The position numbers and the translations under genes were made by a program. 64,000 bases of DNA from Candidatus Endomicrobium labiotermitis (GTDB taxonomy: Bacteria; Elusimicrobiota; Endomicrobiia; Endomicrobiales; Endomicrobiaceae). The notes below the pieces were generated by a model, which had not been told where the DNA came from, made no database searches, and saw only the letters and a program-made list of their open reading frames with translations. Shown here one piece after another: positions 29,277-47,857 of this stretch. Where the stretch lies: contig WRFE01000003.1 of NCBI GenBank assembly GCA_009778965.1, positions 2,585-66,584 of the forward strand, in the 5' to 3' direction. The stretch's first letter is position 1. Every line of letters starts with the position of its first letter.

Positions 29277-30836
29277 CTACCTTACTTTAAAATATTTTTT
29301 TAACTTCTCTCTCATTTTGCGCTCTCGTGTTTTATAAAAATTGTCAAAATCTCTTAATAGCAACGATGTATTTTGCTTCAAAAAATGATCCTCTCTGTTT
29401 AATGCTTTTTTATGTTTATTCCAATAAGCTTCAAGAGAGCTTTTATTTTTTTCCTTGTTTTTTCTTGCATGCAACATCTCCAAATTAGGCAGACGGTCTT
29501 TTTTCGTTCTCCATTCTATAAAGCATTGTTCCGCTCTTATTTTTGTTATTCTTTCTTTCTGTAATTTTTCAATTAATCCGTCTTTGTTTTCAAAGATGCT
29601 ATGCGGATGCATATGATCCTGGTCAAAATCTTTTTCAGAATAATTATAATCATCATACAGTATCATTAATGCCAGCTTGCTATATTTACTTTTCTTAAAA
29701 TCTAGAATTTCAGATATATCATGAGCTGAAAGGACAAACAAGTCATTTTTTAAAATACTTCCTAAAGAATTTGACTTATTTTTATCTATAATATTTCTTA
29801 CTTTTAATAATGTTGTATCTGTAGATTTTCCATAAATTCTTTTTAAAAACGATCTAAATAAATATTCTTTAATTTCATCATCTGATCTTTTCTTGTTTTT
29901 ATAAAATATATATACAAGAGGAATAAGGGCACTATCAGATGTTATATTTTTATCGCTAAACCCAAGCTGATTGATTTTGCCTGCCATACGCAAAATAGCT
30001 TTTTCTATTCTGTTCCAATTTTTATATATTACATCTAATGATTTATCAATTTTATCAGTTATGCCTTGATTTGCTTTGAATTTAATAGTTTCGCCCGATA
30101 AAAACAAGCTTGTCTTCATTATAAATTCATAATCTATTGAAATTTCAAATTCTTTTTCAATTTTTCGCCTTAAATTTTCTAATTTTTTCCTTCCATCCTT
30201 TCCCCATTCTGGTTTAGCCGTCAATCTTGAGAGTAAGACTTGGCTGTTTGATAACGAGGTTCCTCCCTTGTTAACTCTCTCAAAAATATCTGTTATTTCG
30301 CCAATATCACCATTAACTTCATGACTGATAAAGAGTGCTTTTTGAAACTTATTTTTGAATTCTCGAAATTTTGGATCAAGTTGTTTGTTTCCGATAAGAA
30401 TATCGCCCACTTTAAAAAAACCTTTGCCTGCTTGATGCTCATCTAAAAACTTGAATGGATTTTCATTGCGTTTACATTCTGTATTAAAGTAAAGTTTTCT
30501 TTCATTGTAAGAACCATATAGCCCGATAGATATAGCGCTTAATCTTTGTTGTCCGTCTAAAACACCTATTTTGTCTTGAATATTTAAATCTGTCGCTTTT
30601 ATTGTTTCTTTGGAATTATAATATTTCAGAAGCTGCCAATATCCTACTTTTTCCAATTCGCTTGCTTTACTTGGTTTCCAAATCCAGAACATTCCTATAA
30701 AATATCCTTTATTGATTGAATCAAACAATTTTTCAACCTGTTTTTCCCTCCAAACAAAATTACGTTGGATATTGGGCATTACAATTTTATTTTTATTTTT
30801 TTCAAACCAATTGGCAAGATAAATTTTCTTACTCAT
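29277..30836 (-). CDS. DUF262 protein with C-terminal HNH-like (DUF1524-type) region, GmrSD-like, 519 aa
   Basis: PNIQRNFVW, LDGQQRL, FERVNKGG..LS; DQDHMHP...NLEML...KN. Confidence 0.82.
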   Translation of the reverse strand: MSKKIYLANWFEKNKNKIVMPNIQRNFVWREKQVEKLFDSINKGYFIGMFWIWKPSKASELEKVGYWQLLKYYNSKETIKATDLNIQDKIGVLDGQQRLSAISIGLYGSYNERKLYFNTECKRNENPFKFLDEHQAGKGFFKVGDILIGNKQLDPKFREFKNKFQKALFISHEVNGDIGEITDIFERVNKGGTSLSNSQVLLSRLTAKPEWGKDGRKKLENLRRKIEKEFEISIDYEFIMKTSLFLSGETIKFKANQGITDKIDKSLDVIYKNWNRIEKAILRMAGKINQLGFSDKNITSDSALIPLVYIFYKNKKRSDDEIKEYLFRSFLKRIYGKSTDTTLLKVRNIIDKNKSNSLGSILKNDLFVLSAHDISEILDFKKSKYSKLALMILYDDYNYSEKDFDQDHMHPHSIFENKDGLIEKLQKERITKIRAEQCFIEWRTKKDRLPNLEMLHARKNKEKNKSSLEAYWNKHKKALNREDHFLKQNTSLLLRDFDNFYKTRERKMREKLKKYFKVR

Positions 30837-30887
30837 TATTCTCTCAGGGTTCCCTTTTTTTCGTGATAATTATTTGTAACTGCCTTT

Positions 30888-30999
30888 AAGGCTTAAAATT
30901 TTGTGGCAAGGCGAAGAAAAATGTAAACGAAGTTTACGAAAAGCCGAGCGGTAAATGAGTTTACATTTTTCAAAGTCGCAGCCCAAAATTTTAAGCCGC
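30888..30999. mobile_element. ~112-bp MITE-like element with terminal inverted repeats; inverted copy at 51785-51897
   Basis: Reverse complement aligns end-to-end with 51785-51897 at about 90%; ends ggcttaaaattttg...caaaattttaagcc. Confidence 0.75.
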
Positions 31000-31006
31000 C
31001 ACAACA

Positions 31007-33526
<2,520 letters not shown>

Positions 33527-33564
33527 TTAAAACTCCTTCAAGCAAAGCTTGTTTTTATATAAGA

Positions 33565-33879
33565 TTATTTAATAGTAACTTTTATGTTTTTTATTTTTGC
33601 GTTGCCTACATATTGGTTAAGTTTGTTAATTATTTCTTTTTTACGGATTAAAATTTCGTTTATTACCGCGTTATATTTTGTTTGGGCAAAAATTGTTCCG
33701 TCTTTGTAGCCGCATACTTCCACACCGTCTATGCCAAGTTCTTTGTCCCACACTTTCATTATTGTAAAAAAATCTTCATCCAGCCCCAGCATTTTTTTTA
33801 TGGGTTCTAAAATGTCTGCTACGGGCAAAAGTTCGGATTTTCTTTTTTTATAGGATTTTTTTTCTTCAAAATAAGCCAT
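33565..33879 (-). CDS. dciA: DciA/DUF721-family protein
   Basis: About 100 aa between dnaN and gyrB; C-terminal pattern W...G..L......EI..KLN..VG...IK.I. Confidence 0.7.
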   Translation of the reverse strand: MAYFEEKKSYKKRKSELLPVADILEPIKKMLGLDEDFFTIMKVWDKELGIDGVEVCGYKDGTIFAQTKYNAVINEILIRKKEIINKLNQYVGNAKIKNIKVTIK

Positions 33880-33916
33880 ATGTTTTTAAAATGGAAAGTT
33901 AGGATGATAATCAATA

Positions 33917-34016
33917 ACCCTGGATTGCCGCGTCAGGATTTCGTCCTTCCTCGCAATGACGGCAACAACCTTTGCCGTTAACTTCACTCTCCACACTCCA
34001 CTCTTCAAACTGCCGT
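33917..34016. repeat. REP (33917-33962) plus pyrimidine heptamer-like tract
   Basis: accctggattgccgcgtcagg...ctcgcaatgacgg is 42/46 identical to 38882-38927 inside mnmE. Confidence 0.88.
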
Positions 34017-35138
34017 TTAAACTCTCATCGGCATTACTACGCAAAGGTAGTTTTTATCTTTTTCGGGGGAAAGGGTCGCGGGGTTTAACGCGTTGGTAAA
34101 CGCAAATACCGCAGACTCTTCGTCAACATTTTGCAGAACTTCTTTTATAAAATTAGGGTTAAAATTTATTTCCGTTGGTTCGCCTTTATAATCTACTTCC
34201 ACTTCCACTTCTCCAGAACCAAGTCCTGCCGTTGATGCGGAAATTCTTAATACGTTAGCGCTAAAATAAAATTTTACAGCTGAAGATCTGTCCGAAGAAA
34301 GTTTGTCGCCGGTTAAAAGCGCCATTTGTTTTACGGCTGTTAAAGTATCTTTTACGCTAAGTTTTACCTGCGATTCAGTCTTTTTAGGTATTACCTGCTC
34401 ATAGTTGGGGAAAACGCCTTCTATAAGCGTTGATAAGAACGTTATATCTTTAAATTCTATAGCGCACTGATTGTCCGCTATTCCTACTTTTATATCTTCT
34501 GCCGTATCAGCTGCAGAAATAAGCCTTAACATGTCTGCAATGGCTTTTGTTGGCACAATAGCTTTGCCTTTTATTTTTTTATCAAGCGACTCCGATGTAA
34601 CGTAGGCAAGCCTTCTGCCGTCTGTAGCAACCATTCTTAAAATGCCTTCTTCGGCTATAAAATAAACGCCGTTTAAAACATATCTTTGTGTATCTTTGGA
34701 AACAGCAAAAACCGTCTTTTTAAGCATTGATGAGAAAACGTCGGATTTTATAGTAAAATTATTTTCTTTAGGAAATTCCGGAATAACGGGATATTCTGTT
34801 TTAGATATTCCCATTAAAGTAAATTTTGATTTTCCTGATTTTATGTTTATTTGGTTTGTTTCGTCTGCTCTTATTTCTATTTCCGCGTCATTGGAAAGTT
34901 CTTTTATTATATCGGCAAATCTTTTAGCGGGTATTGTTATTCCGCCTTCTTCTATGATTTCGCCTTTAATTTGGCATTTTACCGCTATTTCTAAGTCGGT
35001 AGATGAAAGTTTTATTATATTTTTTTCGGTTTCAAATAAAAAGTTTGACAATACAGGAAGCGTGCTTTTTGAAGACGCTACGGGTGAAACTGTTTGAATC
35101 CCTCTCATTAATTCTTCTTTTCCACAAATTACTTTCAT
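34017..35138 (-). CDS. dnaN: DNA polymerase III beta clamp
   Basis: STLPVLSN, STDLE, VATDGRRL, IEGVFPNY, VVMPMRV. Confidence 0.98.
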   Translation of the reverse strand: MKVICGKEELMRGIQTVSPVASSKSTLPVLSNFLFETEKNIIKLSSTDLEIAVKCQIKGEIIEEGGITIPAKRFADIIKELSNDAEIEIRADETNQINIKSGKSKFTLMGISKTEYPVIPEFPKENNFTIKSDVFSSMLKKTVFAVSKDTQRYVLNGVYFIAEEGILRMVATDGRRLAYVTSESLDKKIKGKAIVPTKAIADMLRLISAADTAEDIKVGIADNQCAIEFKDITFLSTLIEGVFPNYEQVIPKKTESQVKLSVKDTLTAVKQMALLTGDKLSSDRSSAVKFYFSANVLRISASTAGLGSGEVEVEVDYKGEPTEINFNPNFIKEVLQNVDEESAVFAFTNALNPATLSPEKDKNYLCVVMPMRV

Positions 35139-35502
35139 TTCTTTATTCTCCTTTTTTAAAAAAAAGATTGTTATTATAATAGGCGGCTGTATATTGTTAA
35201 TAAGTGTTTAGTAATGTAAATAATCTATAATTATAAATATAAATTTAAAAAAAGTTGAGTTTAATAATTACGTTGGTAAAACCGTAAAGTTATAAACATT
35301 ATCAGCGTATAGAAATATTATACAAATTTTAGAGCAATTATGCACGTAAACATACAATTATTAATTGATAAATAATGAATGAAAATATTGCTTAATATAT
35401 TGCTTTGTAATATTGAACGGAACAATGTAATTGCGAAGTCGAAATATTTGCCTTTTAACGGCAGACACTTCGGCTTCGCTCAGTGTGACAATATAATAGT
35501 TG
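35139..35502. other. Predicted oriC unwinding region between dnaA and dnaN
   Basis: AT-rich; relaxed DnaA boxes at 35195-35203, 35215-35223, 35290-35298 and 35318-35326; minus strand reads box-ATATACAG-CCGCC-TAT TAT AAT AAC AAT (DnaA-trio-like, 35181-35167). Confidence 0.72.
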
Positions 35503-36861
35503 TTAATTGTCGCTGGATTCTCTTATTTTTTTGATAAGCTGGTTGATTTTTGTATTAAAATACGGGTCGGAGTTTACTTTTTCCGATATTTTTTTACAAG
35601 CGTGCATGACTGTGGTATGATCTCTTCCGCCGAAAGCTTCGCCAATATCGTTTGTAGAAAATTCATCAGAAAGAGTGCGCGCGAGGTACATTGCTATTTG
35701 TCTCGGGAACGCTATCGCGTCTGTTCTGCGCTTGGAACGCATATCTCTTAAGTCCATATTAAAATCCTGCGCTATAACTTTTTGTATTTGTTCTATTGTT
35801 ATGCGGACATCAGTTTGTTTTATTATGTCTTTCAATATTTTTTGGACAGAGTCCACAGTTAAAGGAGTGCCTGTAAAAGCCGCAAACGCGGTAATTCTTA
35901 ACAAAGAGCCTTCCAATTCCCTGATATTAGATTTTATATGCGTGGCGATATATAAAAGAACATCGTCCGGAACATAAAATTTTTCATCTTCCGCTTTTTT
36001 GCGAAGAATCGCTATTCTTGTTTCCAAATCCGGCGCCTGAATGTCCGCTGCAACGCCCCACTCAAAGCGCGAAATAAGCCTTTCTTCTATGTTTTCAAGC
36101 TCTTTGGGAGGACGATCCGAAGACACTACAATTTGTTTGCCTGAAGTATGAAGCGTGTTGAACATATTGTGAAATTCTTCCTGAGATTTTCCTTTGCCGC
36201 CCAAAAACTGTATATCGTCTATTAAAAGACAATCGAGGCTTCTGTATTTCTTGTGAAACTCAGGCATTTTGTCAAAACGCAAAAAATCTATAAATTCGGA
36301 AGTAAATTTTTCGGTTGTCGTGTATAAAACCCTCAAGTTAGGGTTGGACTGTTTTATATAATTGCCTATTGCGTGAAGCAAATGCGTTTTTCCGAGCCCT
36401 ACACCGCCATAAATAAAAAGCGGATTAAACTGTTTCCCAGGATTTTTTGCTACTGATTCCGCGCATGCGTGGGCAAATCTGTTTGAAGAACCTACGACAA
36501 AACGATCAAAAACGTATTTAGGGTTTATTTGGTCTTTTTGGACGCTTTGTACCTGCGGGACGTCTGCAGGCGCGGGCGTGTTTTCACCCTGCGCTATAAT
36601 GGGCTTTAAATCCTGCTGCGGTTTAAATTCAAGACTTGTCTGCTGCGCTAAAACGTCGGTTAAAAACTGTTCTATATTTTTTTTGTGATGGGTTTCTATC
36701 CATTGAGAAAAGTAAACATTTGGCACAGCTACCGTAAAAATATTGTTTTCTAAATTTAGCGGTTTTAGCGGCGCAATCCATAAATTATAGGTTTCCTGCG
36801 AAACGGATAAATTGATGTTATCCACAACTTTTTGCCATAGTTCTACAATCGAAACGCTCAT
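35503..36861 (-). CDS. dnaA: Chromosomal replication initiator DnaA
   Basis: NPLFIYGGVGLGKTHL, LLIDDIQF, RELEG, GGRDHTTVMHA. Confidence 0.99.
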   Translation of the reverse strand: MSVSIVELWQKVVDNINLSVSQETYNLWIAPLKPLNLENNIFTVAVPNVYFSQWIETHHKKNIEQFLTDVLAQQTSLEFKPQQDLKPIIAQGENTPAPADVPQVQSVQKDQINPKYVFDRFVVGSSNRFAHACAESVAKNPGKQFNPLFIYGGVGLGKTHLLHAIGNYIKQSNPNLRVLYTTTEKFTSEFIDFLRFDKMPEFHKKYRSLDCLLIDDIQFLGGKGKSQEEFHNMFNTLHTSGKQIVVSSDRPPKELENIEERLISRFEWGVAADIQAPDLETRIAILRKKAEDEKFYVPDDVLLYIATHIKSNIRELEGSLLRITAFAAFTGTPLTVDSVQKILKDIIKQTDVRITIEQIQKVIAQDFNMDLRDMRSKRRTDAIAFPRQIAMYLARTLSDEFSTNDIGEAFGGRDHTTVMHACKKISEKVNSDPYFNTKINQLIKKIRESSDN

Positions 36862-36976
36862 ACAATCCTCAAGTTATCCACAAGTGTGAATATAGTTATC
36901 AACAACATCAAAACTCATTGAAAAATGAAAGATTTTTGACAAATAAAATTGTATAAAATTTGTGATATTTTGTCAA
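36818..36976 (-). promoter_or_regulatory. dnaA promoter (TTGACA-17-TACAAT) and DnaA boxes
   Basis: Perfect TTATCCACA at 36818-36826 and 36874-36882; TTATCAACA at 36896-36904; -35 at 36971-36976 and -10 at 36948-36953. Confidence 0.88.
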
Positions 36977-37018
36977 GTATTCTTTTTATTTTGTTTGCTT
37001 TGGCACAGAATTTTGTTT

Positions 37019-37083
37019 GCAGTTATTTTTGCCAGTCTGTCATTCCGGACTTGATCCGGAATCCATGGTTTAATGAGAGATTG
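37019..37083. repeat. Paired REP (REPIN-like) element
   Basis: gtcattccggacttgatccggaatcc...gattgcggatcggtgtccgcaatgac; related copy at about 47101-47158. Confidence 0.85.
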
Positions 37084-37124
37084 CGGATCGGTGTCCGCAA
37101 TGACAACACAGAAATGCAGAGTTT

Positions 37125-38015
37125 TTAGATATACAATTTTTCAGTTAGATTTACAAAGTCTGATAAAGAAAGTTTTTCGGGGCGCAGCATGGGGTCTAAA
37201 CTGCAGGATTTTAGAATTTCAGCGGCTTTGATTTTGTCGATATTTGCAAAAGAGCTCAAAGAGTTCAGAATGGTTTTTCTGCGCTGGCTGAAAGCGTGTT
37301 TTATAAAAGGGAAAAGCAGTTTATTCGGTTCAGGCGAATTTTTGTTTGTAAGTTTTATTACTGATGAAATTACTTTCGGCGGCGGATTAAAACATTTGGG
37401 CGAAACGTCAAAAAGGATTTCGCGGTTAGCGTAATATTGTGTAAAAAGCGAAATGTAGCCGTATTCGTCATCATCCGGATTAGCCGCAAGCCTTTCAATA
37501 ACTTCTTTTTGAAGCATAAGGACACATTGTGTCCAGCTTGGCATAGGCAGAATCTTTTGAATAATTGCGGTGCCTACATTGTAAGGGAGATTGGAAATAA
37601 CCTTGAAAGGCAAAGTGAAGAGTGAAGACTGAAGAGTTGAGTTCACTGCCATTTTCTGCGTCGTCATTGCGGCCTCTGAGCCGCAATCTTGTTGTAAATC
37701 GGAGATCGCGGGTCGTTGCCCGCAATGACAAATAGGTTTTTTGTCATCAATGTTTAGCTTTAAAAAATCAGCAGTTATTATTTCAATGTTATTAATGTTG
37801 TGGAATGAATAATAATAATTTAATTTCTGCGATAAAGCCGGATCTATTTCCACAGCGGTTAAATGTTTAACTTTTGGCTGTATAAGTTTTGTCAAAACGC
37901 CTTTTCCCGGACCGATTTCGAGGACATTGTCCTCATTAGTTAGTTCGGCGGCTTTGATTATGTTGTTTGCTATATTGTTGTCTATTAAGAAGTTCTGTCC
38001 GTGTTTTTGTCTCAT
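37125..38015 (-). CDS. rsmA: 16S rRNA m6,2A dimethyltransferase RsmA/KsgA with an in-frame repeat-derived insertion
   Basis: HGQNFL, LEIGPGKG, AVEID and NLPYN motifs; 51 aa between DFLK and KVISNLPY. Confidence 0.96.
   Translation of the reverse strand: MRQKHGQNFLIDNNIANNIIKAAELTNEDNVLEIGPGKGVLTKLIQPKVKHLTAVEIDPALSQKLNYYYSFHNINNIEIITADFLKLNIDDKKPICHCGQRPAISDLQQDCGSEAAMTTQKMAVNSTLQSSLFTLPFKVISNLPYNVGTAIIQKILPMPSWTQCVLMLQKEVIERLAANPDDDEYGYISLFTQYYANREILFDVSPKCFNPPPKVISSVIKLTNKNSPEPNKLLFPFIKHAFSQRRKTILNSLSSFANIDKIKAAEILKSCSLDPMLRPEKLSLSDFVNLTEKLYI
37663..37729. repeat. Paired REP element inside the rsmA coding sequence
   Basis: Terminal inverted repeats GTCATTGCGG...CCGCAATGAC enclosing two hairpins. 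Confidence 0.9.
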
Positions 38016-38046
38016 AAAGAAAAGACCCTTTTATAATATTGGGAGT

Positions 38047-38496
38047 TTAACGAACAGTTTGGTTAATATAAGTATTTCTTTTTTCTATATGCGTTGTTAC
38101 GGGAACAGGTATGGCATTTGTATATTTTATTGCAATAGCGGTTGCCGTATACTTGATTTCTTTTATCGGATCGAATTTATTTTTAGTAGGCAAGACTTCT
38201 TCATCTATTCTTAAATTCATAATATCATCCGCACCAAGATTTTGAGCTTCTTTCATTAGCATCTCGTAAGTTATGCGAGACCCTTTTACGACTTCTCTTC
38301 CACGGATGTCTACTTTTTCTATTGCTGTTGATTTTAGAAAAATAATACCTTTTACTTCAAAATCTTTTACAACTGCATTATTGACGTCTGAAACAGAGCC
38401 ATAACTCTGTTGTTTGGATGTTGTTGTTGCGCATCCGTTAAAGAATAATATTGTTGTTGCTAAAAATACAAAACAAATATATTTATAAGCTTTCAT
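38047..38496 (-). CDS. Small lipoprotein of unknown function, 149 aa
   Basis: Lipobox-like FNGC after a hydrophobic stretch; RBS ggagg. Confidence 0.8.
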   Translation of the reverse strand: MKAYKYICFVFLATTILFFNGCATTTSKQQSYGSVSDVNNAVVKDFEVKGIIFLKSTAIEKVDIRGREVVKGSRITYEMLMKEAQNLGADDIMNLRIDEEVLPTKNKFDPIKEIKYTATAIAIKYTNAIPVPVTTHIEKRNTYINQTVR

Positions 38497-38574
38497 ACAT
38501 CCTCCATTTTTAGTTTTTGTGAATAAATTTTATCAAATTTAACACTAGCAGACAATAAAAATAATGTTTGAGTT

Positions 38575-39957
38575 TCATTTTCCTATGCAAAAATTTGAGA
38601 AGATTGTATCCAAAATATCATGAGAGGTGGTTATTCCTAAAATATCTTCGTAGGCTGCTAAAGCGGTGCGAAGTTCAAACGCTGCGATTTCATCTGCGTC
38701 TTGCAGCATATATTGCTCTTTTGTTTTTTCCAAAGCGCATTGTGCTTTTTTTAGCAGGTCAAAATGACGGGATGTTATCATTAAATAATCGTTAGTTTCG
38801 GTTATTCCTGCTATTTTGGCAATAGCATCTAATAGTTCTGGGATTCCGGAGCCGGTTTTTGAAGATACGGCTAATGAAGCGACCCTGGATTGCCGCGTCA
38901 CGACTTTGTCGTTCCTCGCAATGACGGACGGTAAGTCAGATTTATTGACTACTTCTATTATAGGTGTATTTAAGTTTGATTTTGTTATAAAGTCCGCGAT
39001 TTCCTGATCGTTTTTATCTAAGGGCTGCGAGCCGTCTATTACCCATATTATTAAATCCGCTTTTTGCACGGCGTCTTTTGAGCGCTCCTGCCCTAAAACT
39101 TCAATAGAATTTTCTGTATGCGTTCTTATTCCCGCGGTATCTATTATTGTTAAAGGAATGCCGCGGCAGTCTATTATTTCTTCTATGGTATCGGTTGTAG
39201 TTCCCTCTATTTCAGTTACAATCGCGCGGTTTTTGCCTAAAATCGCGTTTAAAAGTGAAGATTTTCCTGCGTTTGGCTTTCCTATAATTGCGGCTTTCAA
39301 GCCTTTTTGCAGACTTTCGCTTACTTTATAGTTCTCTATAAGTTTTTGGTTTTGCTCTATTAAATTGCCAAGCCGCTCAGTCTTTTCTTCTCGCGATAAA
39401 AACATTATATTTTCTTCCGGATGGTCTAGCGACACTTCCATATAAGCAAGCAAATTAATAAGAGTATTTTTGATGCCTTTAATTTTGTTTGAAAATTCGC
39501 CGCTTACATTATTTAACGCTGCTTTCGCGGCAGCCGCCGTTTTGCTTGAAATTAAAGCGCAGACAGCTTCTGCCTGGGCCAGATCTTTTTTCCCGTTTAT
39601 AAAAGCTCTGTATGTAAACTCTCCGGGCTCGGCCGGACGCGCGCCGTTTTTGTATAAAAGGTCTAAAATCTCTTTTACAATAACAGGATTTCCGTGCGTT
39701 GAAATTTCAATCAAATCTTCACCGGTATATGTATCAGGGGCTTTAAAAAAGGCACATAGTACCTCGTCTATTTTGTTGTTTCCGTCAACTATATAACCGT
39801 ATTTTATTTGTTTATCTTGAGATTTCGTTTCGAAAATCTTTTCTATAATATCAGGCGACTGCCTGCCGGAAAGACGTATAACCGCGATCGCGGATTTTCC
39901 CGCGGCGGTCGATAAAGCGGCAATAGTATCTTCTGTTTCGTAATTCATAATGTTCAT
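38575..39957 (-). CDS. mnmE: tRNA modification GTPase MnmE/TrmE (start 39948 or 39957)
   Basis: DTIAALST, YTGED, GKPNAGKSS, GTTTD, DTAG, NKSD and FSNFCIGK motifs. Confidence 0.98.
   Translation of the reverse strand: MNIMNYETEDTIAALSTAAGKSAIAVIRLSGRQSPDIIEKIFETKSQDKQIKYGYIVDGNNKIDEVLCAFFKAPDTYTGEDLIEISTHGNPVIVKEILDLLYKNGARPAEPGEFTYRAFINGKKDLAQAEAVCALISSKTAAAAKAALNNVSGEFSNKIKGIKNTLINLLAYMEVSLDHPEENIMFLSREEKTERLGNLIEQNQKLIENYKVSESLQKGLKAAIIGKPNAGKSSLLNAILGKNRAIVTEIEGTTTDTIEEIIDCRGIPLTIIDTAGIRTHTENSIEVLGQERSKDAVQKADLIIWVIDGSQPLDKNDQEIADFITKSNLNTPIIEVVNKSDLPSVIARNDKVVTRQSRVASLAVSSKTGSGIPELLDAIAKIAGITETNDYLMITSRHFDLLKKAQCALEKTKEQYMLQDADEIAAFELRTALAAYEDILGITTSHDILDTIFSNFCIGK
38882..38927. repeat. 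REP copy in-frame inside mnmE (G4-G5 loop)
   Basis: 42/46 identical to the intergenic copy at 33917-33962; encodes SVIARNDKVVTRQSRV. Confidence 0.92.
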
Positions 39958-40101
39958 TATTATATCATAATATGTATGCAATAAAATTGTTGAACCTTGC
40001 GTTTAGTTATTGAAAGTTGATTTTAATTGAAATAAATAATAGAATTGAAACACTTTCAGCAATGCTTTATTTGCTATATTCAAAACACAGGGGGAAGAAG
40101 T

Positions 40102-41982
40102 ATGAAAAATGGTTTATTTTTTGCTTTAGCTGTTGCTGTTTTCGGACTTGCAAGCTGTACGCACACGGTTGTTCATGAAAGAGTTGTTGAAGCCCAGCCT
40201 TCGGCAGTAAAAAATGTGTCAACAACGCAGTTGATATACGCGGCAGGCACAGGTAATGTTACTGAAGTAAGACGTCTTGTTAATGAAGGGTATGACGTAG
40301 ACGAAGCATATTACGCGTCAGGTTTTGAAGCGACTGCTTTAATGGAAGCCGCGAAAAAGAACCAGTATACAGTAGCGACGTTTTTGGTCAACACTGCGCG
40401 CGCGGATGTTAATATAGACGTTAATGACCAAACGGCTTTAACTATTGCCGTTGGCAGAAATTATTTGTCTATGGTTCAGCTTTTGGTGAACAATCATGCT
40501 GATATTTATAATTACCCTATATTGCAAATGGGCGTGAACAATCCAAACGATGCGAAAGTTTTGGAAGTGCTTGTAAGAGCGGGCGCGGGCAGAAGAGATT
40601 ATGATTATTCGGCCTGGGACGCTGACGAAGCTTTAATTAAAGCGGCGAAGCTAGGCAATAAAGAAGCTGTAAGAGTTTTACTGCAAGCCGGAGCGGACGC
40701 GGGAATGGGCGATGAACAAGGACGCGGACTTGTATTTTATGCCGCGCAGAGAAAAGATGCCGTTCTTTTAGAAGCGGCAGCCCCTTATATTGCCAACGAT
40801 ATTAATACTATTGATATAAACGGTATGACTCCTTTAATGGTCGCGGTACAAAGCGGAAATATTGCGGGAGTAAAATTTTTAGTCGCTAAAGGCGCGTATA
40901 TTAACATACAAGAAGACAGAGGCTATACTGCGATAGATTTTTCAAAAAATATTGATATAACCAACTTTTTAAAAGAAGCGCTTGAAGGACCAAAGAACGA
41001 AATGCCTGTGAATTATGAAGTAAAAAAGACTCAATCCGTAAGAACAGTCGCACAGCCGCAAAACAGAAATGTAAGAACTCCTTCTACTACAAGAGCTCCG
41101 GCTCCAAGAGCAGAAGCCGCTGTTGAGCCTGAGCCGGAACCGGAAGAAGAAGTTGAAATGGTAACTGTTACAGATACAAAAGGCAATGTCAGGCAAATGC
41201 CCGTAAAACAGCCTGCGAAACAGCAGCCTAATAATACTCCCGGAAGAAATACGCCTGCGCAGACAAAACCCGCAGATCCGGCAAAGCCAGCCGAACCGGC
41301 AGTTGTTGAAGAACCGAAGCCTGAACCAGTTGTTGATCCTAAAAATAATAATAATTCAAGACAGCCTGCGCCTGGAGTAAAGCAGCCGCCAACGCCTGCA
41401 AAACAGGCCCCGTCTGTTCCTAACAGAAATACGCCTTCGACGCCTGCAAAACCTGCAGAGCCAGCGAAACCGGCTGAACCGGCAGTTGTAGAAGAGCCAA
41501 AACAAGAGCCGGCGGCTCCGGAAGTAAAACAGCCGTCGACACCTGCTGGCAAGCAGCCGACGCCTGTAAAACAAGCGCCGACTCCTCCTGCAAGAAATAC
41601 GCCTGCGCAGCCTGCAAAGCCGGCAGAACCTGTAAAACCTGCGGAACCAGTTGTTGAGCAGCCAAAACCAGCAGAGCCTGCAAAACCTGCAGCTCCTGCG
41701 GTGAAACAGCCAGCGGCGCCCGCGCCAAAACAACCAGCGGCTCCGGCAAAACCGGCAACTCCTGTAAAACCTACAGCCCCTGTGAAAGACGAAGTGAAGA
41801 AAGTAGAAGAAAAAGTTGTTGAAGAAGTAAAAGAAATTGAAGAAGAAGTAACCAAAGAAGCGGAAAAAGTGGAAGATAAAACTAAAGGCAACAATGCCAA
41901 TACCGGCTATGGACAAACTTCTGACAAAGGCGCCCAGCAGGCTGACAACAGCAGAAAGCCGGGAACCGACAACAAGAAATAA
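40102..41982 (+). CDS. Ankyrin-repeat lipoprotein with long Pro/Ala/Lys-rich repetitive tail
   Basis: Lipobox LASC; ankyrin repeats TALMEAA, TALTIAV, ALIKAAKLG, TPLMVAVQSG; PAKPAEP repeats; RBS before 40102. Confidence 0.88.
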   Translation: MKNGLFFALAVAVFGLASCTHTVVHERVVEAQPSAVKNVSTTQLIYAAGTGNVTEVRRLVNEGYDVDEAYYASGFEATALMEAAKKNQYTVATFLVNTARADVNIDVNDQTALTIAVGRNYLSMVQLLVNNHADIYNYPILQMGVNNPNDAKVLEVLVRAGAGRRDYDYSAWDADEALIKAAKLGNKEAVRVLLQAGADAGMGDEQGRGLVFYAAQRKDAVLLEAAAPYIANDINTIDINGMTPLMVAVQSGNIAGVKFLVAKGAYINIQEDRGYTAIDFSKNIDITNFLKEALEGPKNEMPVNYEVKKTQSVRTVAQPQNRNVRTPSTTRAPAPRAEAAVEPEPEPEEEVEMVTVTDTKGNVRQMPVKQPAKQQPNNTPGRNTPAQTKPADPAKPAEPAVVEEPKPEPVVDPKNNNNSRQPAPGVKQPPTPAKQAPSVPNRNTPSTPAKPAEPAKPAEPAVVEEPKQEPAAPEVKQPSTPAGKQPTPVKQAPTPPARNTPAQPAKPAEPVKPAEPVVEQPKPAEPAKPAAPAVKQPAAPAPKQPAAPAKPATPVKPTAPVKDEVKKVEEKVVEEVKEIEEEVTKEAEKVEDKTKGNNANTGYGQTSDKGAQQADNSRKPGTDNKK

Positions 41983-42016
41983 CCGTGTGTAAAAATTAAC
42001 AATATAAGCAAAGTAG

Positions 42017-42048
42017 AAAAGACCTGAGAAATTCTTCAGGTCTTTTTT
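42017..42048 (+). terminator. Intrinsic terminator
   Basis: aaaagacctga / tcaggtcttttt. Confidence 0.85.
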
Positions 42049-42101
42049 ATTTTGGGTGTTTTTGTTGTTGGTTATTATTGCGGCAGATTCTTTTAAAGTA
42101 T

Positions 42102-42364
42102 GTCATGCTGAACTCTCGTTTCAGCATCCCGTCGTTAAAATATAAACTACATGACCCTGAAACAAGTTCAGGGTGACACTTAGGACACGGAATAGATTGC
42201 GGATTCCCGTGTAAATTGTATAGGGCACTCACATCTCGTGCCCGCCGTTGGCATGCGCTCCTTATTCGTCGCGCAACGGATGGGACAGGCTTGCTTCGCG
42301 ACTGTAATGACGATAATAGAAAAAATGGATTGCTTCTTCGGAAAAATGTTTCCTCATCGCAATG
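42102..42364. repeat. REP cluster between convergent genes
   Basis: gtcatgctgaactctcgtttcagcatc 42102-42128; gaccctgaaacaagttcagggtgac 42153-42177; further gattgc...aatgac units to 42364. Confidence 0.82.
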
Positions 42365-42385
42365 ACATTAACGACGGTTTTATTT

Positions 42386-43069
42386 TTAACTCTTAACTGC
42401 TTTCACGCCGACTTTTCTGAATGCGCCTTCGCCTTCGGAAAAGGTTTCTACTTTGGAGTTGTTTTCAAGATAAGTGTGTATTATTTTTCTTTCTTTTGCG
42501 CCCATAGGATCGAAACGGTAAATTTTACCTGTGCGAATAACATATTCCACGGCTTTATCAGCTAAGATTTTCAGTTTTTCGGTTTGTTTTATTCTGTAAT
42601 TTTCGCAGTCAATGTTTACCTTTATTTTAAAAGCCGAATCGTTGTTTGCGATAATTTGAATTATATATTCCAAAGCGTCTAAAGTCTGGCCGTTTTTGCC
42701 TATAATAAAACTTCCGTTGCTTGCGGAAACCTGGGCGTTTACGGTTTTGTTTTCATAAGATGAACTGATTTCTTTAAACTCAATGCCCATGTTATTTAAA
42801 ATATTTTTTAAAATAGTTTCAACATTTTCGCGAATCTTTTTTACGTCGGCTTCGCTTTCTTTTTCACTGATCTGAACTTGCTCAGAGCATTTTGAAGAAC
42901 TTACGGAAATCAAAACTCTTGCCGGTTTCGCGCCCATAAGCCCGAACAGTCCGCTTGAACCTTCATCAAGAATTTTTATTTCAGCGTCTTTTCTTTCACA
43001 GCCCAGCTGAGCAAGCCCTTTATTTATTGCTTCTTCTATTGTCTTTCCCGTAATTTCTATTTCAGGCAC
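42386..43069 (-). CDS. jag: Jag/EloR/KhpB RNA-binding protein
   Basis: GKTIEEAI, GLFG, KH domain IIGKNGQTLDAL, R3H-like ERKIIH. Confidence 0.95.
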   Translation of the reverse strand: MPEIEITGKTIEEAINKGLAQLGCERKDAEIKILDEGSSGLFGLMGAKPARVLISVSSSKCSEQVQISEKESEADVKKIRENVETILKNILNNMGIEFKEISSSYENKTVNAQVSASNGSFIIGKNGQTLDALEYIIQIIANNDSAFKIKVNIDCENYRIKQTEKLKILADKAVEYVIRTGKIYRFDPMGAKERKIIHTYLENNSKVETFSEGEGAFRKVGVKAVKS

Positions 43070-44642
43070 GATTCACTCCCGAGAGTTGTACTCTTTCTTT
43101 ATCTTTTTTTAGTACAAAATATTGCAAGCCCATTGAGAACACGCTGTTTGTAAGCCAGTAGAGGACAAGTCCGGACGGGAATGTCCAAAACAAGAACGTG
43201 AAAATTATAGGCATTAAATACATTATTCTTCTTTGCATCGGGTCGGAAGATACCGCCGTCATTTTTTGCTGTAAAAACATCCCTAAGCCCATTATCAAAG
43301 GAAGCAGGTTTATAGTTAAAAATCCCAAATCCATGAATTGGTCAGGAGCGGATAAATCTTTTACCCACAAAATCCAGGGCTCGTTTCTAAGTTCATAAGC
43401 GTTTCTGAGCATTGAGAAAAACGCCCAGAAAATAGGCAATTGCAAAATCATAGGAAGACAGCCGCCCAAAGGATTAACTTTTTGCGTTTTGTAAATGTTT
43501 AACATTTCAGCCTGCAGTCTTTTCGGGTCGCCTTTGAATTTGTCCTGAATTTCTTTTATCATCGGCTGAACGCGTTTCATAGCAGCCATGGCCTTGTAGC
43601 TTTTTAAAGATAAAGGCATAACTATAATCTGAATTATTATAGTGAGCATTATTATTGCCCAGCCGTAATTATGGGTAATTTTATAAAAATACGATAAAAC
43701 CGCAAGTGCCCATTTGCCTAAAAAGCCGAACATGCTGAAATCCACGGCTGATTCAAGGCCTATATTGAATGTTCTTAAAAAGGTAAAGCCTTTAGGACCT
43801 ATGTAGAAGTCCACCGAATAATCTTTTGACGCATTATCTGCAGGTGTTATGGCATTTATATGCAGCGAAAAAGGATGTTTTTTGCTTTGGCGCGACGGCG
43901 TAATTTGGTCAAAATCGATTGATTTTTCAGGTATAAACGCGGCAAGGAAATATCTGTTGTCTATTGCCGCCCATCTGAAAAGCCCGAAAGGTTCAGGCTC
44001 TTTTTTTAAGACTTTCAGCTTTCCGGGTTTTGTCGCGGTAAAAGCGATTATTCTTGTAACGGACGTATTTTCTTTCATCTCTTTCGCGTCTGTGCCAAGT
44101 CCGGGTCCCCAGTCAAGTTCTATGTTCGGGAGCTTCACTTCTTCTTTGGTTCTTGCAAGAGCTATATTAAGGTTGTGCATGAATGAATCTTGCGATAAAG
44201 TGTAGGTTTTTGTTATTTTCCAGCCTTGCGCCGAAGCGTATTCAAAAACAACTTTTTCATTGGATTTTGAAACGATTTTATAGTTTGCGCCGGGAAAATT
44301 TGCCATCATTGGAGCTGCGCCGGGCAATACTAAATCTACCCATTCTCCGTTTCTTTCTTTAATAGACCATTGTATTACAGCCGCGCCTCTGTTTGAAAGC
44401 GTAGCTCTGTATCTGGCGGTTTCAATATTTATTGTCTCTTCCTGAACAAAACCGCCATCCGATTCTTTTATTATTGAAACGGATTCCGCTGCGTTTGCTG
44501 CAGATTGGGCAGTCTGTGTTTGGACTGTTTGCGTTTGTCCGGGCTGATTTTGTTCCGGATTAGGCTTTGGAGCCGCGAAATAGTAATATACAAGAAGCGT
44601 CATCGCGGAAAAAACTAAAAATAACATCGAATTTTTGTTCAT
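43062..44642 (-). CDS. yidC: Membrane protein insertase YidC
   Basis: NYGWAII.LT, NPLGGCLP, LSAPD; position after yidD. Confidence 0.97.
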   Translation of the reverse strand: MNKNSMLFLVFSAMTLLVYYYFAAPKPNPEQNQPGQTQTVQTQTAQSAANAAESVSIIKESDGGFVQEETINIETARYRATLSNRGAAVIQWSIKERNGEWVDLVLPGAAPMMANFPGANYKIVSKSNEKVVFEYASAQGWKITKTYTLSQDSFMHNLNIALARTKEEVKLPNIELDWGPGLGTDAKEMKENTSVTRIIAFTATKPGKLKVLKKEPEPFGLFRWAAIDNRYFLAAFIPEKSIDFDQITPSRQSKKHPFSLHINAITPADNASKDYSVDFYIGPKGFTFLRTFNIGLESAVDFSMFGFLGKWALAVLSYFYKITHNYGWAIIMLTIIIQIIVMPLSLKSYKAMAAMKRVQPMIKEIQDKFKGDPKRLQAEMLNIYKTQKVNPLGGCLPMILQLPIFWAFFSMLRNAYELRNEPWILWVKDLSAPDQFMDLGFLTINLLPLIMGLGMFLQQKMTAVSSDPMQRRIMYLMPIIFTFLFWTFPSGLVLYWLTNSVFSMGLQYFVLKKDKERVQLSGVNRA

Positions 44643-44780
44643 TTGAAATCCTTTTTTAACTACAGATTAAAGAGTTTAAAGTGAAGAGTTAAGATACTGA
44701 GTTTTCGCAAAGCGAAAACTAATTAGTTAGATTTCGGCTTAGCCGAAATTCAATATCTCCACTCTTAATCTTTTCAATCT

Positions 44781-44999
44781 TCACTCTGTCTTTTGTGGTA
44801 CCGGATCTTCGCCGCCTTTGCAAAAAGGGTGACAGCGTATAATCCGTTTAAACGCTAAAAATATTCCTTTAAAAAAACCGTGAATTTCTATTGCCTGATA
44901 AGCGTAAGCGGAACAACTCGGCGTGAACCTGCATCTTGGAGGAAGAGTTGATGATACTGCCTGGTAACATCTTATCAAAAAAAGCGCGGTCCGTTTCAT
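44781..44999 (-). CDS. yidD: Membrane protein insertion efficiency factor YidD
   Basis: CRFTPSCSAY, RIIRCHPF..GG.DPVP. Confidence 0.95.
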   Translation of the reverse strand: MKRTALFLIRCYQAVSSTLPPRCRFTPSCSAYAYQAIEIHGFFKGIFLAFKRIIRCHPFCKGGEDPVPQKTE

Positions 45000-45367
45000 A
45001 ATTGTTCTGATTTGTCTTTATAAAAACCCGCGCTTTCAAGAAGCTCTAAAACTGTTTTTTTCAAGTCGCTGTAATCCGATGATGCGGTTTGAGGTTTGGA
45101 AATGAAAATCAAATCCAAGCCGGGTTCCAACAAATGCTTATGGGTTCTAAAAATTTCCCGTAACCTTCTTTTTGTTCTGTTTCTTTCAACGGCAGTCCCG
45201 ACTTTTCGGGAAGTCACAAGACCTAATCGCTTTAAATAAAGACCGTCATTCTTATATGCCAGAATTTTTATCTTTTTATCTTCGAGCCTGCGCCCGAGTT
45301 TAAAAACTTTTTTAAAGTCTTTCTGCAGATGAAGCTTTTCGCGATAAGAAAAAGAAAACTGTTTCAT
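44996..45367 (-). CDS. rnpA: Ribonuclease P protein component
   Basis: RLGLVTSRKVGTAVERNRTKRRLRE. Confidence 0.96.
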   Translation of the reverse strand: MKQFSFSYREKLHLQKDFKKVFKLGRRLEDKKIKILAYKNDGLYLKRLGLVTSRKVGTAVERNRTKRRLREIFRTHKHLLEPGLDLIFISKPQTASSDYSDLKKTVLELLESAGFYKDKSEQL

Positions 45368-45370
45368 TTT

Positions 45371-45462
45371 AGACGATGAGATGTTGAGAAGTTAAGATGT
45401 TGAGAGGAGCTCTGGTTGTTAAAGCCGTTGCCGTTACTCATCTTCCCTTCTGCCCACCTTCT
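45371..45462. repeat. Heptamer-tract hairpin element; related copies at 45687-45780 and about 58113-58198
   Basis: Purine-rich gatgagatgttgag arms with pyrimidine counterparts; 39-nt core 33/39 identical between the two copies flanking rpmH. Confidence 0.75.
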
Positions 45463-45466
45463 GTAG

Positions 45467-45601
45467 TTACGCGCTTAAAGTTTTTCTGCCTTTTCTTCTG
45501 CGCGCGCTCAATACTCTTCTTCCGCCCGGCGTCGCCATTCTCGCCATAAAGCCGATTTTCTTTTTTCTTCTGTCTTTGTTTGGTTGGAACGTTCTTCTCA
45601 T
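45467..45601 (-). CDS. rpmH: 50S ribosomal protein L34 (44 aa; absent from the ORF track)
   Basis: Hand translation [44 protein letters not shown]. Confidence 0.98.
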
Positions 45602-45795
45602 TTTTTAAGTCCTTTTTTTCTATTGAGGCTTTGCCTCTTTTTTGGTATTATATCTAAATTGCCGTTTGACTGTCAAACGCAAACGGCAGAAGGTGAGATG
45701 ATGAGAGGTTGAGAGAAGCTCCGGCTGCTTAAGCCGTTGCAGTTGCTCATCTTCCCAACATCCCATCTTCTCATCGTCTATATATAAGGGATTTT

Positions 45796-47091
45796 ATGAA
45801 AAAGATTTTTGGCGTGTTGCTGCTTATGATAATTGCTGTTGCTTATGCGGCGGCGGAAACAAAATTAACTTATGACGGTCTTGCGCGCGGACGTTACGAA
45901 TACCATTCAAATCTTATAGACGCGGGTTATACAGGTAAAGATGAAAAAAGTTTTTTCAGGTTTAAATTTCTCGCGGGTATTACTGCTGATTTTGACGAAT
46001 GGGTGTCCGCTTGTTTCAGAATGGGTACAGAAAGCCGTTCTTTTATATACAATGCAGGCGGCAGTACCGAATATAATGTCAACGAATTTTTTATAGACAA
46101 TTTGTATGTAAAAATTCCTTATTTTATGGATGTTTTGGAATTAAAAGCAGGAAGAATGGATTTGCCGATTTCGGAATACGGCGAAGGTTTTTTGATAGCC
46201 GACGGTACTCCCTTAGACGGCTCCAGAACTTGGTACTTTAACGCGATTAAAGCTAAATTTCTTCTAGGTGAAAATAAAACAAGCACCGTTGAATTTATAG
46301 GAATATACAATCCGCGCGTTGATGATGTTTTGCCCGTGATAAACCAAAACACGCCGCCCACGCCTTTAAACGATTCGCTGGAAACCGGATTTGTAGTTTA
46401 CGGAAGAACCGGCGATAAAGATAAGTTGTATTTTGAACCTTATTATATGTATAAACACGAAGACGCCGCCCAAGGCGGACGTCTTGAAGAGGATGTTCAT
46501 ACGTTTGGTTCTTATATGAAATACACGTTAAACGATGTTGCCGTTTTGCGCTGTCAGGGAGCAATGCAGATAAACAATTACGGCAGGGAAATAAATACTG
46601 CTTTTGGCGGATACGTTTTTACAGATTTTTCTTTGGGAATGCTTAACCCGCTTTCAATAGGATATGCTTATCTTTCCGGAAATGATCCGGACACCCTAGG
46701 CGCGGAAGGCTGGAATCCGTTATTTTCCCGTTATCCGTGGATGTCGGAAGCGGTAGGTTATTTATATAGATACGAGTCAGGTCTTTTGTATTGGACGAAC
46801 TTGCAAATATGTAAAGCGGATTTAAACATTTCTCTCAGCAAAGAATTGAAAATTCTTTTGTCCGGCGCTTTGCTTTATGCAAATGAAACCGTTGATAACG
46901 CGTCTGCTATATATCCGATGTTTGGCGAAGGCAAAAACAGAGGAACTCTGGCAGGGGCAAAAGTTTCTTATGTCTTTTCAAAATATGTAAGCTCTTATAT
47001 TTTGTGCGAATATTTTAAACCCGGCGATTTTTATTTTAGCAAAGCGAAAGACTTGGTTTTTGCAAGAATAGAATTGGCTGCTAAATTGTAA
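45796..47091 (+). CDS. Outer-membrane beta-barrel, alginate-export-like, 431 aa
   Basis: Signal peptide; alternating aromatic beta strands; LKAGRMDL..YGEGFLI; GYAYLSG.D; ends in RIELAAKL. Confidence 0.7.
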   Translation: MKKIFGVLLLMIIAVAYAAAETKLTYDGLARGRYEYHSNLIDAGYTGKDEKSFFRFKFLAGITADFDEWVSACFRMGTESRSFIYNAGGSTEYNVNEFFIDNLYVKIPYFMDVLELKAGRMDLPISEYGEGFLIADGTPLDGSRTWYFNAIKAKFLLGENKTSTVEFIGIYNPRVDDVLPVINQNTPPTPLNDSLETGFVVYGRTGDKDKLYFEPYYMYKHEDAAQGGRLEEDVHTFGSYMKYTLNDVAVLRCQGAMQINNYGREINTAFGGYVFTDFSLGMLNPLSIGYAYLSGNDPDTLGAEGWNPLFSRYPWMSEAVGYLYRYESGLLYWTNLQICKADLNISLSKELKILLSGALLYANETVDNASAIYPMFGEGKNRGTLAGAKVSYVFSKYVSSYILCEYFKPGDFYFSKAKDLVFARIELAAKL

Positions 47092-47214
47092 AACCCTATT
47101 TCTTGATCCGCAATCTATGATTTACGACGAGATTGCGGCTCAAAGTCCGCAATGACGACACAGAAATGCAGATTTTTAGAGAAACTAAATTAAATATCCG
47201 ACAGGAGAAAAATT

Positions 47215-47607
47215 ATGAAAAAAATATTATTTTTGTTTGTGGCGGCTTTAATGCTTGCAGGTCTTTCTTCTTGCGATAATAATATTTTATATCCGGTTAA
47301 CAGGGTTGAAATACATGACGCTGCCGGAAATAAACTGCCCGCTTATAAACCGGGCGGATTTCCCGTTGCGTCATTTGTTCAGCTTAATGCGGTGTTTTTA
47401 AATTCCAAAAATGAATCTTTGGAAGTTTCTAATCCCGAAGAGATTTTATGGACTATGAGCAACGGACAAGATTCGTGGTTTTTGCCGACAAATGCAGGAT
47501 ATGAAGTTTATTTTAATCCTCCGGCAGAGGCAGCTGGCCCAGATATGCTTTATATGAAAGTTGAATACAGAGAGTTTTCCGCGATTGTAAATTTTGCATT
47601 AAATTAA
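47215..47607 (+). CDS. Hypothetical lipoprotein, 130 aa
   Basis: Lipobox LSSC; RBS aggag. Confidence 0.75.
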   Translation: MKKILFLFVAALMLAGLSSCDNNILYPVNRVEIHDAAGNKLPAYKPGGFPVASFVQLNAVFLNSKNESLEVSNPEEILWTMSNGQDSWFLPTNAGYEVYFNPPAEAAGPDMLYMKVEYREFSAIVNFALN

Positions 47608-47620
47608 TTTTTTCGTTTTA

Positions 47621-47814: not shown

Positions 47815-47857
47815 TACAACGACAAAAAATAAAAAATATAAATATACAGGAGAAGCA

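Follow-up and report, generated by a model that had tools for sequence, protein, structure and literature searches.

REPINs with RAYT transposases were reportedly described by Bertels and Rainey in 2011. A preliminary description of a 64,000-nucleotide stretch of DNA (hereafter the window) from Candidatus Endomicrobium labiotermitis, phylum Elusimicrobiota (contig WRFE01000003.1, positions 2,585 to 66,584 of the forward strand; assembly GCA_009778965.1), placed such an element in frame within the gene of the rRNA dimethyltransferase RsmA (KsgA). We examined this insert and found it to be composite, as a 67-bp doublet of repetitive extragenic palindromes (REPs) lies next to the solo arm of a second, apparently older palindromic element made of heptamer arrays. 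The extra loop of RsmA very probably consists of selfish hairpin repeats, nested in one another, that this working enzyme tolerates at a permissive site on its surface.

Repeats with some of these properties are known from several bacteria. The CGTC-tagged REP superfamily comprises palindromes of 20-40 bp that end in CGTC, have no dedicated transposase and include intragenic dimers coding for 20-30 aa (Di Nocera, De Gregorio & Rocco 2013, PMC3733652). Rickettsia palindromic elements (RPEs) were described by Ogata et al. 2000, as summarized in the review PMC10969869. The preliminary description held in-frame palindromes to be documented mainly for Rickettsia and a few other taxa; the published range is wider and covers several species and both GTAG- and CGTC-tagged REPs (PMC3733652). 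The Neisseria repeat NTS (CGTCATTCCCGCGMAVGCGGGAATCYRG) has the GIY-YIG single-strand nuclease SsnA as its partner (Chenal et al. 2025, PMC11893778). Furthermore, convergent pairs of heptamer simple-sequence repeats (GGGAATC) occur in Xanthomonas (Rehm et al. 2015, PMC4692102), and in Coxiella IS1111 is found nested in QMITE2 (PMC5896051).

An in-frame REP doublet in rsmA

The genome under study (G000) is a 1.89-Mb metagenome-assembled genome of 107 contigs, with 38% G+C and an estimated completeness of 99.97%. By its homologues it belongs to Endomicrobia (Elusimicrobiota) and shares a genus with Endomicrobium proavitum. Its single-copy rsmA gene is an uninterrupted open reading frame (ORF) whose product matches Pfam RrnaAD (PF00398) with E = 2e-54 (184.9 bits, cut-off 24). 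The gene and the parts of its loop are listed below in the order of translation, with the strand given for coding features.

37125-38015, minus strand: rsmA/ksgA coding sequence, 296 aa, uninterrupted (ORF, Pfam RrnaAD, AlphaFold, Foldseek)
37755-37769, minus strand: codons D83-F-L-K-L87 on the motif III side, the last conserved residues before the insert (codon print-out, alignments)
37730-37754, minus strand: 25-nt stretch coding N-I-D-D-K-K-P-I, without match to any repeat family
37663-37729: 67-bp REP doublet, coding about C96-T118 (hairpins, genomic matches, RNA fold)
37646-37662: tail of a REP subfamily, consensus GACACAGAAATGCAG on the coding strand, coding about T119-A123 (15-copy alignment, flank search)
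37611-37649: solo arm of a heptamer-array palindrome (AGTGAAG-type units), coding (A)VNSTLQSSLFTL (nhmmer, E = 1e-5)
37581-37610, minus strand: codons P136-F-K-V-I-S-N-L-P-Y145, strand beta4 and the catalytic NLPY motif IV, intact (alignments; AlphaFold strand 137-142)

The insert peptide, ...CHCGQRPAISDLQQDCGSEAAMTTQKMAVNSTLQSSLFTL, is read in frame between DFLK(L) and (PF)KVISNLPY, exactly where it had been placed. The gap between D83-F-L-K-L87 and K138-V-I-S-N-L-P-Y145 spans 50 residues compared to 14 in Bacillus subtilis KsgA, and a phmmer search against solved structures split the RsmA match into residues 4-89 and 138-295. Compared to the base state of the loop in Endomicrobia (7 residues, 118 orthologues), about 43 aa have been gained on balance; the difference from the closest congener is 38 aa. 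Of the extra residues, first put at 35-40, the REP doublet and its tail account for only about 27-28, with about 12 contributed by the heptamer arm and 8 by the 25-nt stretch.

The doublet consists of two (T/C)GTCAT-tagged hairpins (37663-37689 and 37703-37729) in opposite orientation, with tags outward and a spacer of 13-15 nt, and is bounded by perfect 10-bp terminal inverted repeats, GTCATTGCGG and CCGCAATGAC. One of the two stems has a single, G.U-compatible mismatch, and the right hairpin reads CGTCATTGCGG. The RNA of this region folds as one long hairpin (z = -3.4 compared to shuffled sequence). The paired REP, its terminal repeats and the adjacent AGTGAAG-type heptamer tract are all present as described and far above chance expectation, with 8 occurrences of the hairpin pattern in the window for 0.19 expected. 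The flank GCAATGACGACGCAGAAA, which was said to be common to intergenic copies, was found again at 37097-37114 and 47149-47166 (3 matches versus 0.05 expected). Likewise, the tail, which overlaps the heptamer arm by about 4 nt, recurs at 37105-37119 and 47157-47171 of the window and on contigs C5, C33 and C41. Alignment of 15 genomic copies yielded the consensus TGTCATTGCGGGCT..GACCCGCAATCTATGATTTACGACGAGATTGCGGCTCA..G.CCGCAATGAC, to which the tail is added in a subfamily that includes the rsmA copy. Two members of this alignment are intergenic in the window.

37039-37119: REP doublet and tail, inverted relative to the rsmA copy, beginning 5 nt past the rsmA stop codon (window repeat search, 15-copy alignment)
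47102-47171: only the 3' half of the left hairpin, followed by the spacer, a complete right hairpin and the tail (flank search, repeat families, 15-copy alignment)

Genome-wide, we counted 356 hairpins with perfect stems (layout GTCAY, stem, loop, stem). Their most frequent stem classes are ATTGCGG (95), ATTCCGG (44), ATGCTGA (32) and ATCCCCG (28), and their tags are TGTC (272, 76%), CGTC (71, 20%), AGTC (8) or GGTC (5). The rsmA hairpins belong to the ATTGCGG family, which comprises about 95 perfect-stem single hairpins and 12 perfect doublets. Pairs with outward tags at most 40 nt apart number 88 in the genome, with a commonest span of 66-67 nt, and the rsmA unit is typical of them. Its closest genomic relative (C26:23203-23269) is 92.5% identical and two further copies are 87-88% identical. 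Because nearest-neighbour identity among the 12 perfect intergenic doublets has a median of 91.7% and a maximum of 94%, the rsmA copy appears to be neither unusually young nor unusually decayed. The composite insert is free of stop codons in only one of six frames, the frame in use, versus an average of about 1.3 open frames out of six for intergenic doublets. Since a single frame is open, a selection filter by which the readable version alone was retained would fit better than coding design.

The heptamer tract is an arm of a second palindromic family

The heptamer tract had been regarded as a mere neighbour of the REP. A genome search with this tract returned about ten similar sites, the surroundings of which turned out to be complete palindromes. 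Each starts with a purine-rich arm of about four 7-nt units (e.g. AGAGTGAAGATTGAAGAGTGGAGAGTTGAGAT), continues with an interior of 7-82 nt in which small hairpins are often present, and ends with the complementary arm, the inverted arms being about 32-39 nt long. Using an nhmmer model of the arm, we found 62 arms in the genome. Twenty-three pairs form elements of 70-141 nt, and among the 17 arms that stand alone the rsmA arm scored best. The tract next to the REP is instead such a solo arm, from an apparently older family spread through the genus, and its junction with rsmA is the same in four species (see below). As for the hallmarks of a MITE, these elements have inverted arms, their flanks displayed no consistent target duplication, and no parent insertion sequence (IS) was found for them.

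We used representatives of four Endomicrobium species for comparison: G000, G001, G002 (Endomicrobium proavitum) and G003. Hits of a three-heptamer pattern in these genomes were as follows.

G000: 45 hits (control 0)
G001: 34 hits (control 0)
G002: 40 hits (control 14)
G003: 98 hits (control 19)

The other genera of the family had essentially no hits, except for G015 (81 hits versus 37 in the control). By this pattern, the heptamer-array family appears to be restricted to the genus Endomicrobium. Enrichment of REPs inside heptamer elements was considered and discarded, as only three cases were found (rsmA, C1:92461 and C30:10199), which is not clearly above intergenic density.

Two other arrays were seen in the window. 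Another palindrome, built of purine-rich tandem units (AGATGTTGAG / AAGTTAAG ...) and then the complement of these units, occurs twice, at 45379-45462 and 45688-45771 (79% identity between the copies). It may represent a second heptamer- or octamer-array family. At 16921-17881, a 66-nt unit is repeated 14 times head-to-tail with 75-85% identity, probably a repeat protein or a tandem array.

Order of insertion events

Across the 118 Endomicrobia RsmA sequences, the loop has 7 residues in the majority (NIPNTEL, DIPDIKR and similar) and 12-103 residues in 43. When mapped on a tree built without the loop columns, the expanded state required at least 16 changes. The four Endomicrobium proteins differ in their inserts.

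G000 RsmA, 296 aa: arm adjoining PFK, REP doublet and 25-nt stretch
G001 RsmA, 318 aa: both heptamer arms (QSEEWR... and ...AVNSTPRFPLFT) around a GC-rich interior
E. proavitum (G002) RsmA, 349 aa: both arms, a 93-nt tandem duplication and other GTCAT-type hairpins
G003 RsmA, 260 aa: solely the arm adjoining PFK

The junction between the arm and the PFK codons (CACTTTG followed directly by CC(T/G)TT) occupies the identical site in all four genes. Because this junction is common to the four species, the arm next to PFK appears to be the inherited part of the insert. Strict matches to the ATTGCGG REP were found 37 times in G000 and 7 times in G003, 3-4 times in three other genera, and not at all in G001 and E. 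proavitum; within rsmA, the REP is present only in G000. The two congeners without genomic copies of this REP family also lack the REP segment in rsmA, and the proposal of an independent case of repeat-driven loop growth is borne out.

These comparisons indicate two steps. In the first and older one, a palindrome with heptamer arms appears to have entered the loop between strands beta3 (DFLK) and beta4 (KVISNLPY) in an ancestor of Endomicrobium or possibly earlier. Both arms are retained in G001 and E. proavitum, and only the PFK-side arm in G003 and G000. In the second and younger step, confined to the G000 lineage, the 67-bp (T/C)GTCAT-tagged doublet with its tail of about 15 nt took its place inside the heptamer element. 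The product is predicted to be translated as a flexible loop of about 40 residues that connects the top of beta3 with the start of beta4. The peptide NIDDKKPI encoded at 37730-37754 resembles the ancestral short loop of related RsmA proteins (DIPDKPL, EIPADKPF), a likeness that is suggestive only. A 9-mer that this stretch has in common with the interior of one element does not exceed chance expectation.

The largest insert was observed in the cultivable type species E. proavitum (rsmA at 4530-5579, minus strand of its locus sequence), where the loop totals 103 residues. Its 93-nt tandem duplication, 98% identical, comprises one heptamer arm and a CTGAAGCAAGTTCAGGGTGA hairpin, and an additional GTCATTGTGAGAC...GTCTCA hairpin is read as RCHCETLVSKS. 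By the alignment and the tree, the rsmA loop is a permissive and recurrent target of repeats in Endomicrobia and not the site of a one-off event.

Integrity of the enzyme and of the assembly

All 27 invariant and all 73 nearly invariant columns listed from the 118-orthologue alignment are retained in this RsmA, in agreement with the earlier statement that frame and motifs are intact. They include the S-adenosylmethionine-binding and catalytic motifs GxGxG (E33-IGPGKG39), E56, D83 and N142-L-P-Y145. An AlphaFold2 model computed with the same alignment (mean pLDDT 87.9, pTM 0.83) recovered the two-domain KsgA fold, with a Rossmann-type N-terminal domain and a helical C-terminal domain, and the top 47 Foldseek matches were structures of KsgA, Dim1 or TFB1M (TM-scores of 0.83-0.90 for KsgA targets). 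In the model, the insert lies between strands 77-81 and 137-142, and only residues 93-102 and 106-124 have a pLDDT under 50. KsgA contacts rRNA through loop1, the beta6/7 linker, loop12, loop14 and loop15 (bioRxiv 10.1101/2021.09.15.460497). The insertion loop, which maps to B. subtilis residues 109-122 (phmmer), is absent from these reported contact loops and would point away from the 30S subunit. Since it lies outside them, the enzyme should still dimethylate A1518/A1519. On the strength of the conserved residues and the model, RsmA is probably functional.

A young pseudogene, in which the insertion has inactivated or is inactivating RsmA before stop codons accrue, could draw on the dispensability of ksgA in E. 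coli and on the terminal branch of this protein (P0001) in a quick tree, which is 0.20 long versus 0.07-0.08 in its nearest relatives. However, a relative-rate check found the core equidistant from the outgroup, with 69.3%, 68.9% and 69.3% identity to E. proavitum in G000, G001 and G003, respectively. DnaA and MnmE gave the same pattern, that is, no excess divergence in G000. Furthermore, every conserved residue is retained, the doublet is no recent arrival (92.5% identity to the closest copy, family maximum 94%), and congener genes with larger inserts and loops of up to 103 aa are also intact. We consider inactivation very unlikely.

A 107-contig metagenome assembly containing hundreds of near-identical short repeats might also have collapsed or misjoined repeat reads inside rsmA. 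Against this, contig k141_164355 of the independent ENA metagenome assembly ERZ27257295, whose contigs are named after another assembler's scheme, codes for an identical protein and has a single mismatch over 3,891 bp, so that the gene is not peculiar to a single assembly. The insert is about 120 nt long (less than a read pair), in frame, unique and only 92.5% identical to its nearest copy, and congeners bear inserts at the same site. An assembly artefact is thus extremely improbable.

Other in-frame repeats in the genome and the genus

Nineteen of the 356 hairpins are inside open frames that extend for 60 or more codons to either side. After a Pfam screen, the real in-frame cases were rsmA, a GT4 glycosyltransferase, a U32 peptidase, a PHP-UvrD-like helicase and mnmE. 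Three short REP-containing ORFs were treated as spurious: C1:88571-89074 and C6:33937-34509, which have no Pfam match, and C51:227-715.

The GT4 glycosyltransferase (C67:5814-7034, minus strand) carries a 17-residue (51-nt) insert of the ATTGCGG family in its interdomain linker (RHCGQRVAQARHCGLDP). This insert is specific to G000 and is read in the xHCG frame as in rsmA; two congeners have a clean empty site, and comparison with these sites made no target duplication evident. The U32-family peptidase (C38:9259-11460, minus strand) contains four GTCAY hairpins in frame (VIPEKAGIH...MDSDFHRNDTD; SPCHPELASGSG...KMLKQVQHDTS), and the PHP-UvrD-like helicase (C11:31466-34438, minus strand) has one in the linker that precedes the helicase domain. 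The mnmE gene (38575-39981, minus strand) bears a repeat of another type, of which an intergenic copy is found at 33917-33962.

38882-38927: a different hairpin repeat (CCGTCATTGCGAGG...GCGGCAATCC type), in frame in the MnmE G4-G5 loop (VIARNDKVVTRQSRVASL) (repeat family and Pfam domains)

The MnmE G4-G5 loop contains repeat-derived inserts in all four species, and these are of the heptamer-array type in the three congeners. Moreover, the mnmE and rsmA inserts are homologous DNA within G001 and within E. proavitum, with 92-97% identity. In G001, a GC-rich dispersed module of about 100 nt (3285-3430 of the G001 locus sequence) is nested in the heptamer-array element of both genes. It occurs at no fewer than 6 sites (including contigs C33, C58, C59, C46 and C29) in copies 92-98% identical, and appears to have been recently active. 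Gene conversion is not needed to explain the sharing in G001, where other copies are 96-98% identical to the rsmA copy versus 93% for the mnmE copy; fresh insertions into existing palindromes seem likelier than local gene conversion, in G001 at least. In E. proavitum, homologous heptamer-arm DNA is present in both genes, and its interior was not found as a dispersed module.

We also considered whether the RsmA beta3-beta4 loop and the MnmE G4-G5 loop are true landing pads, in which old heptamer-array palindromes lodged in each gene fold out as single-stranded DNA and attract further hairpins, placed by hairpin-directed enzymes such as the small GIY-YIG (Ssn-like) nucleases. The G001 module, up to 98% identical to other copies and present in both genes, and the E. 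proavitum heptamer-arm DNA, 92-97% identical in both genes, are consistent with this proposal, which we nonetheless hold to be doubtful. If true, it would imply a rapid turnover of nests of selfish palindromes inside conserved genes.

In another interpretation, the insert would have been co-opted, either as a metal site or interaction surface built on the Cys/His residues of the GTCATTGCGG words (CHCG...DCG), or as an mRNA or DNA hairpin that acts as a processing, stability or pausing signal in the mnmE-rsmA region. The use of the xHCG frame in rsmA, in the glycosyltransferase and in a different GTCAT hairpin of E. proavitum rsmA is compatible with this interpretation, as are an RNA fold more stable than that of shuffled sequences (the z-score given above) and the presence of inserts in the neighbouring mnmE and rsmA of every congener. 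However, the content of the insert is wholly different between close species, its frame was forced as one alone is open, and AlphaFold assigned it no structure. No Rfam family matched the region, as no match reached the gathering score across window positions 30000-50000. Furthermore, the rsmA copy has diverged as much as intergenic copies have from their relatives, which suggests no extra constraint. We therefore regard co-option as unlikely, and a tolerated nest of selfish repeats remains our preferred interpretation.

Between mnmE and rsmA of G000, a 149-aa ORF with a lipoprotein-type signal (...FFNGCATT...) was noticed at 38047-38496 on the minus strand, also in the second assembly. The two genes are adjacent in G001 and G003, with no gene between them.

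Mobilization and relation to described systems

A search for Y1/RAYT transposases (PF01797) returned no match in this 99.97%-complete genome, and control matches were obtained in 6 of 14 genomes. IS110 and TnpB genes were not found in the genome either. The family found in rsmA is like REPINs in that its inverted REP doublet forms one long hairpin and exists in tens of copies per genome, but unlike them in that the Endomicrobium genome has no RAYT/Y1 gene, no GTAG tag and no REP-flanked transposase. The strict REPIN/RAYT reading was rejected on the missing PF01797 match and on a tag that is TGTC or CGTC and not GTAG, and the term REPIN, used in the preliminary description, is not supported in its strict sense. 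Given the (T/C)GTC tag and no RAYT, IS110 or TnpB gene, the REP of rsmA seems to resemble CGTC-tagged or NTS-like repeats and not RAYT-driven REPINs.

Like CGTC-tagged REPs, among them RPE-4 and RPE-6, the repeats are small, GC-rich hairpins that bear a (C)GTC tag on one end, lie mostly between genes and often form inverted dimers. In-frame dimers in conserved genes are a further shared trait (about 23 aa for the rsmA doublet, about 28 with the tail), together with hosts that include UvrD-type and RNA-modification genes and with the lack of a dedicated transposase. In contrast, TGTC tags (272) outnumber CGTC tags (71) in the Endomicrobium genome, the repeats are unrelated to RPEs in sequence, the host phylum is Elusimicrobiota, and the dimer is nested in an older heptamer palindrome at a repeatedly hit loop.

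The NTS repeats, published together with a pattern for Ssn-related motifs (SRM), offer another parallel, as the hairpin layout (C/TGTCATT, stem, loop, stem, AATC) is alike and words of the NTS stem recur in the ATTCCCG class of this genome. Small GIY-YIG genes that stand alone, four in number and 95-100 aa in product length, were found at C1:83710-83931, C70:2110-2334, C23:7723-7950 and C4:23039-23254. Those on C23 and C4 have perfect inverted GTCAT hairpins on both sides (CTGAAC and ATTCCCG class, respectively), a layout resembling NTS-ssnA-NTS, and those on C1 and C70 are bracketed by imperfect GTCAT-tagged hairpins. Such flanking is far above chance at the genome density of 0.19 hairpins per kb. 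None of the four genes is flanked by the ATTGCGG class. The nearest solved relatives of these proteins are UPF0213 proteins, with weak E-values, and an NCBIfam search was uninformative. By analogy, Ssn-type nucleases are a reasoned lead as partners of the GTCAT repeats of Endomicrobia, short of an assignment to the group.

For the heptamer-array element, the closest published description appears to be that of the Xanthomonas heptamer pairs. In both, an arm of about four tandem 7-nt units is followed by a complementary array, and the elements are dispersed, mostly near gene ends, with few intragenic cases. The Endomicrobium unit differs in being A/G-rich (AGTGAAG) without G-quadruplex potential, in enclosing an interior of 7-82 nt able to hold further hairpins, and in its occurrence in one genus of Elusimicrobiota. 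The Coxiella case is similar in that an existing palindromic repeat serves as the landing site of another mobile element, but the incomers in Endomicrobium are tiny gene-less hairpin repeats and the whole nest is in a coding frame.

Interpretation and significance

Several points weigh against the reading of the RsmA loop as a tolerated nest of selfish repeats that accumulated in two steps. The left junction of the heptamer insert differs in G000, where 25 nt resembling the ancestral loop are found, and the heptamer element may have entered either once or repeatedly. Low pLDDT in the loop is no proof of disorder, and ERZ27257295 possibly derives from the same or a sister sample. The absence of transposase genes is weak evidence in a metagenome-assembled genome of 107 contigs, as multi-copy IS are often lost from assemblies. 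Finally, the published SRM pattern, HGTCWYN(0-2)YYVSBRHN(0-5)WNVSBRGN(0-2)RNCYNB (PMC11893778), gave 26 hits genome-wide versus 1 in the control, but it missed all 95 ATTGCGG hairpins as well as the two in rsmA.

The phenomenon itself is known from RPEs, intragenic REPs and QMITEs, and the rsmA case is a further example. Our literature search returned no report of in-frame hairpin repeats for Endomicrobia, and the present case extends these repeats, best known from Rickettsia RPEs and some REPs, to the Elusimicrobiota. It also shows that an enzyme conserved universally can have an exceptionally permissive loop, with 7 to 103 residues among the 118 orthologues. This permissiveness could be of use for KsgA engineering and could keep annotation pipelines from treating such genes as aberrant. 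The cultivable relative E. proavitum, with its 103-residue loop, makes translation of the insert, function of the enzyme and movement of the repeats testable. Furthermore, the layout of GIY-YIG genes and GTCAT hairpins hints that Ssn-type nucleases, and not RAYTs, may partner this class of repeats in Endomicrobia.

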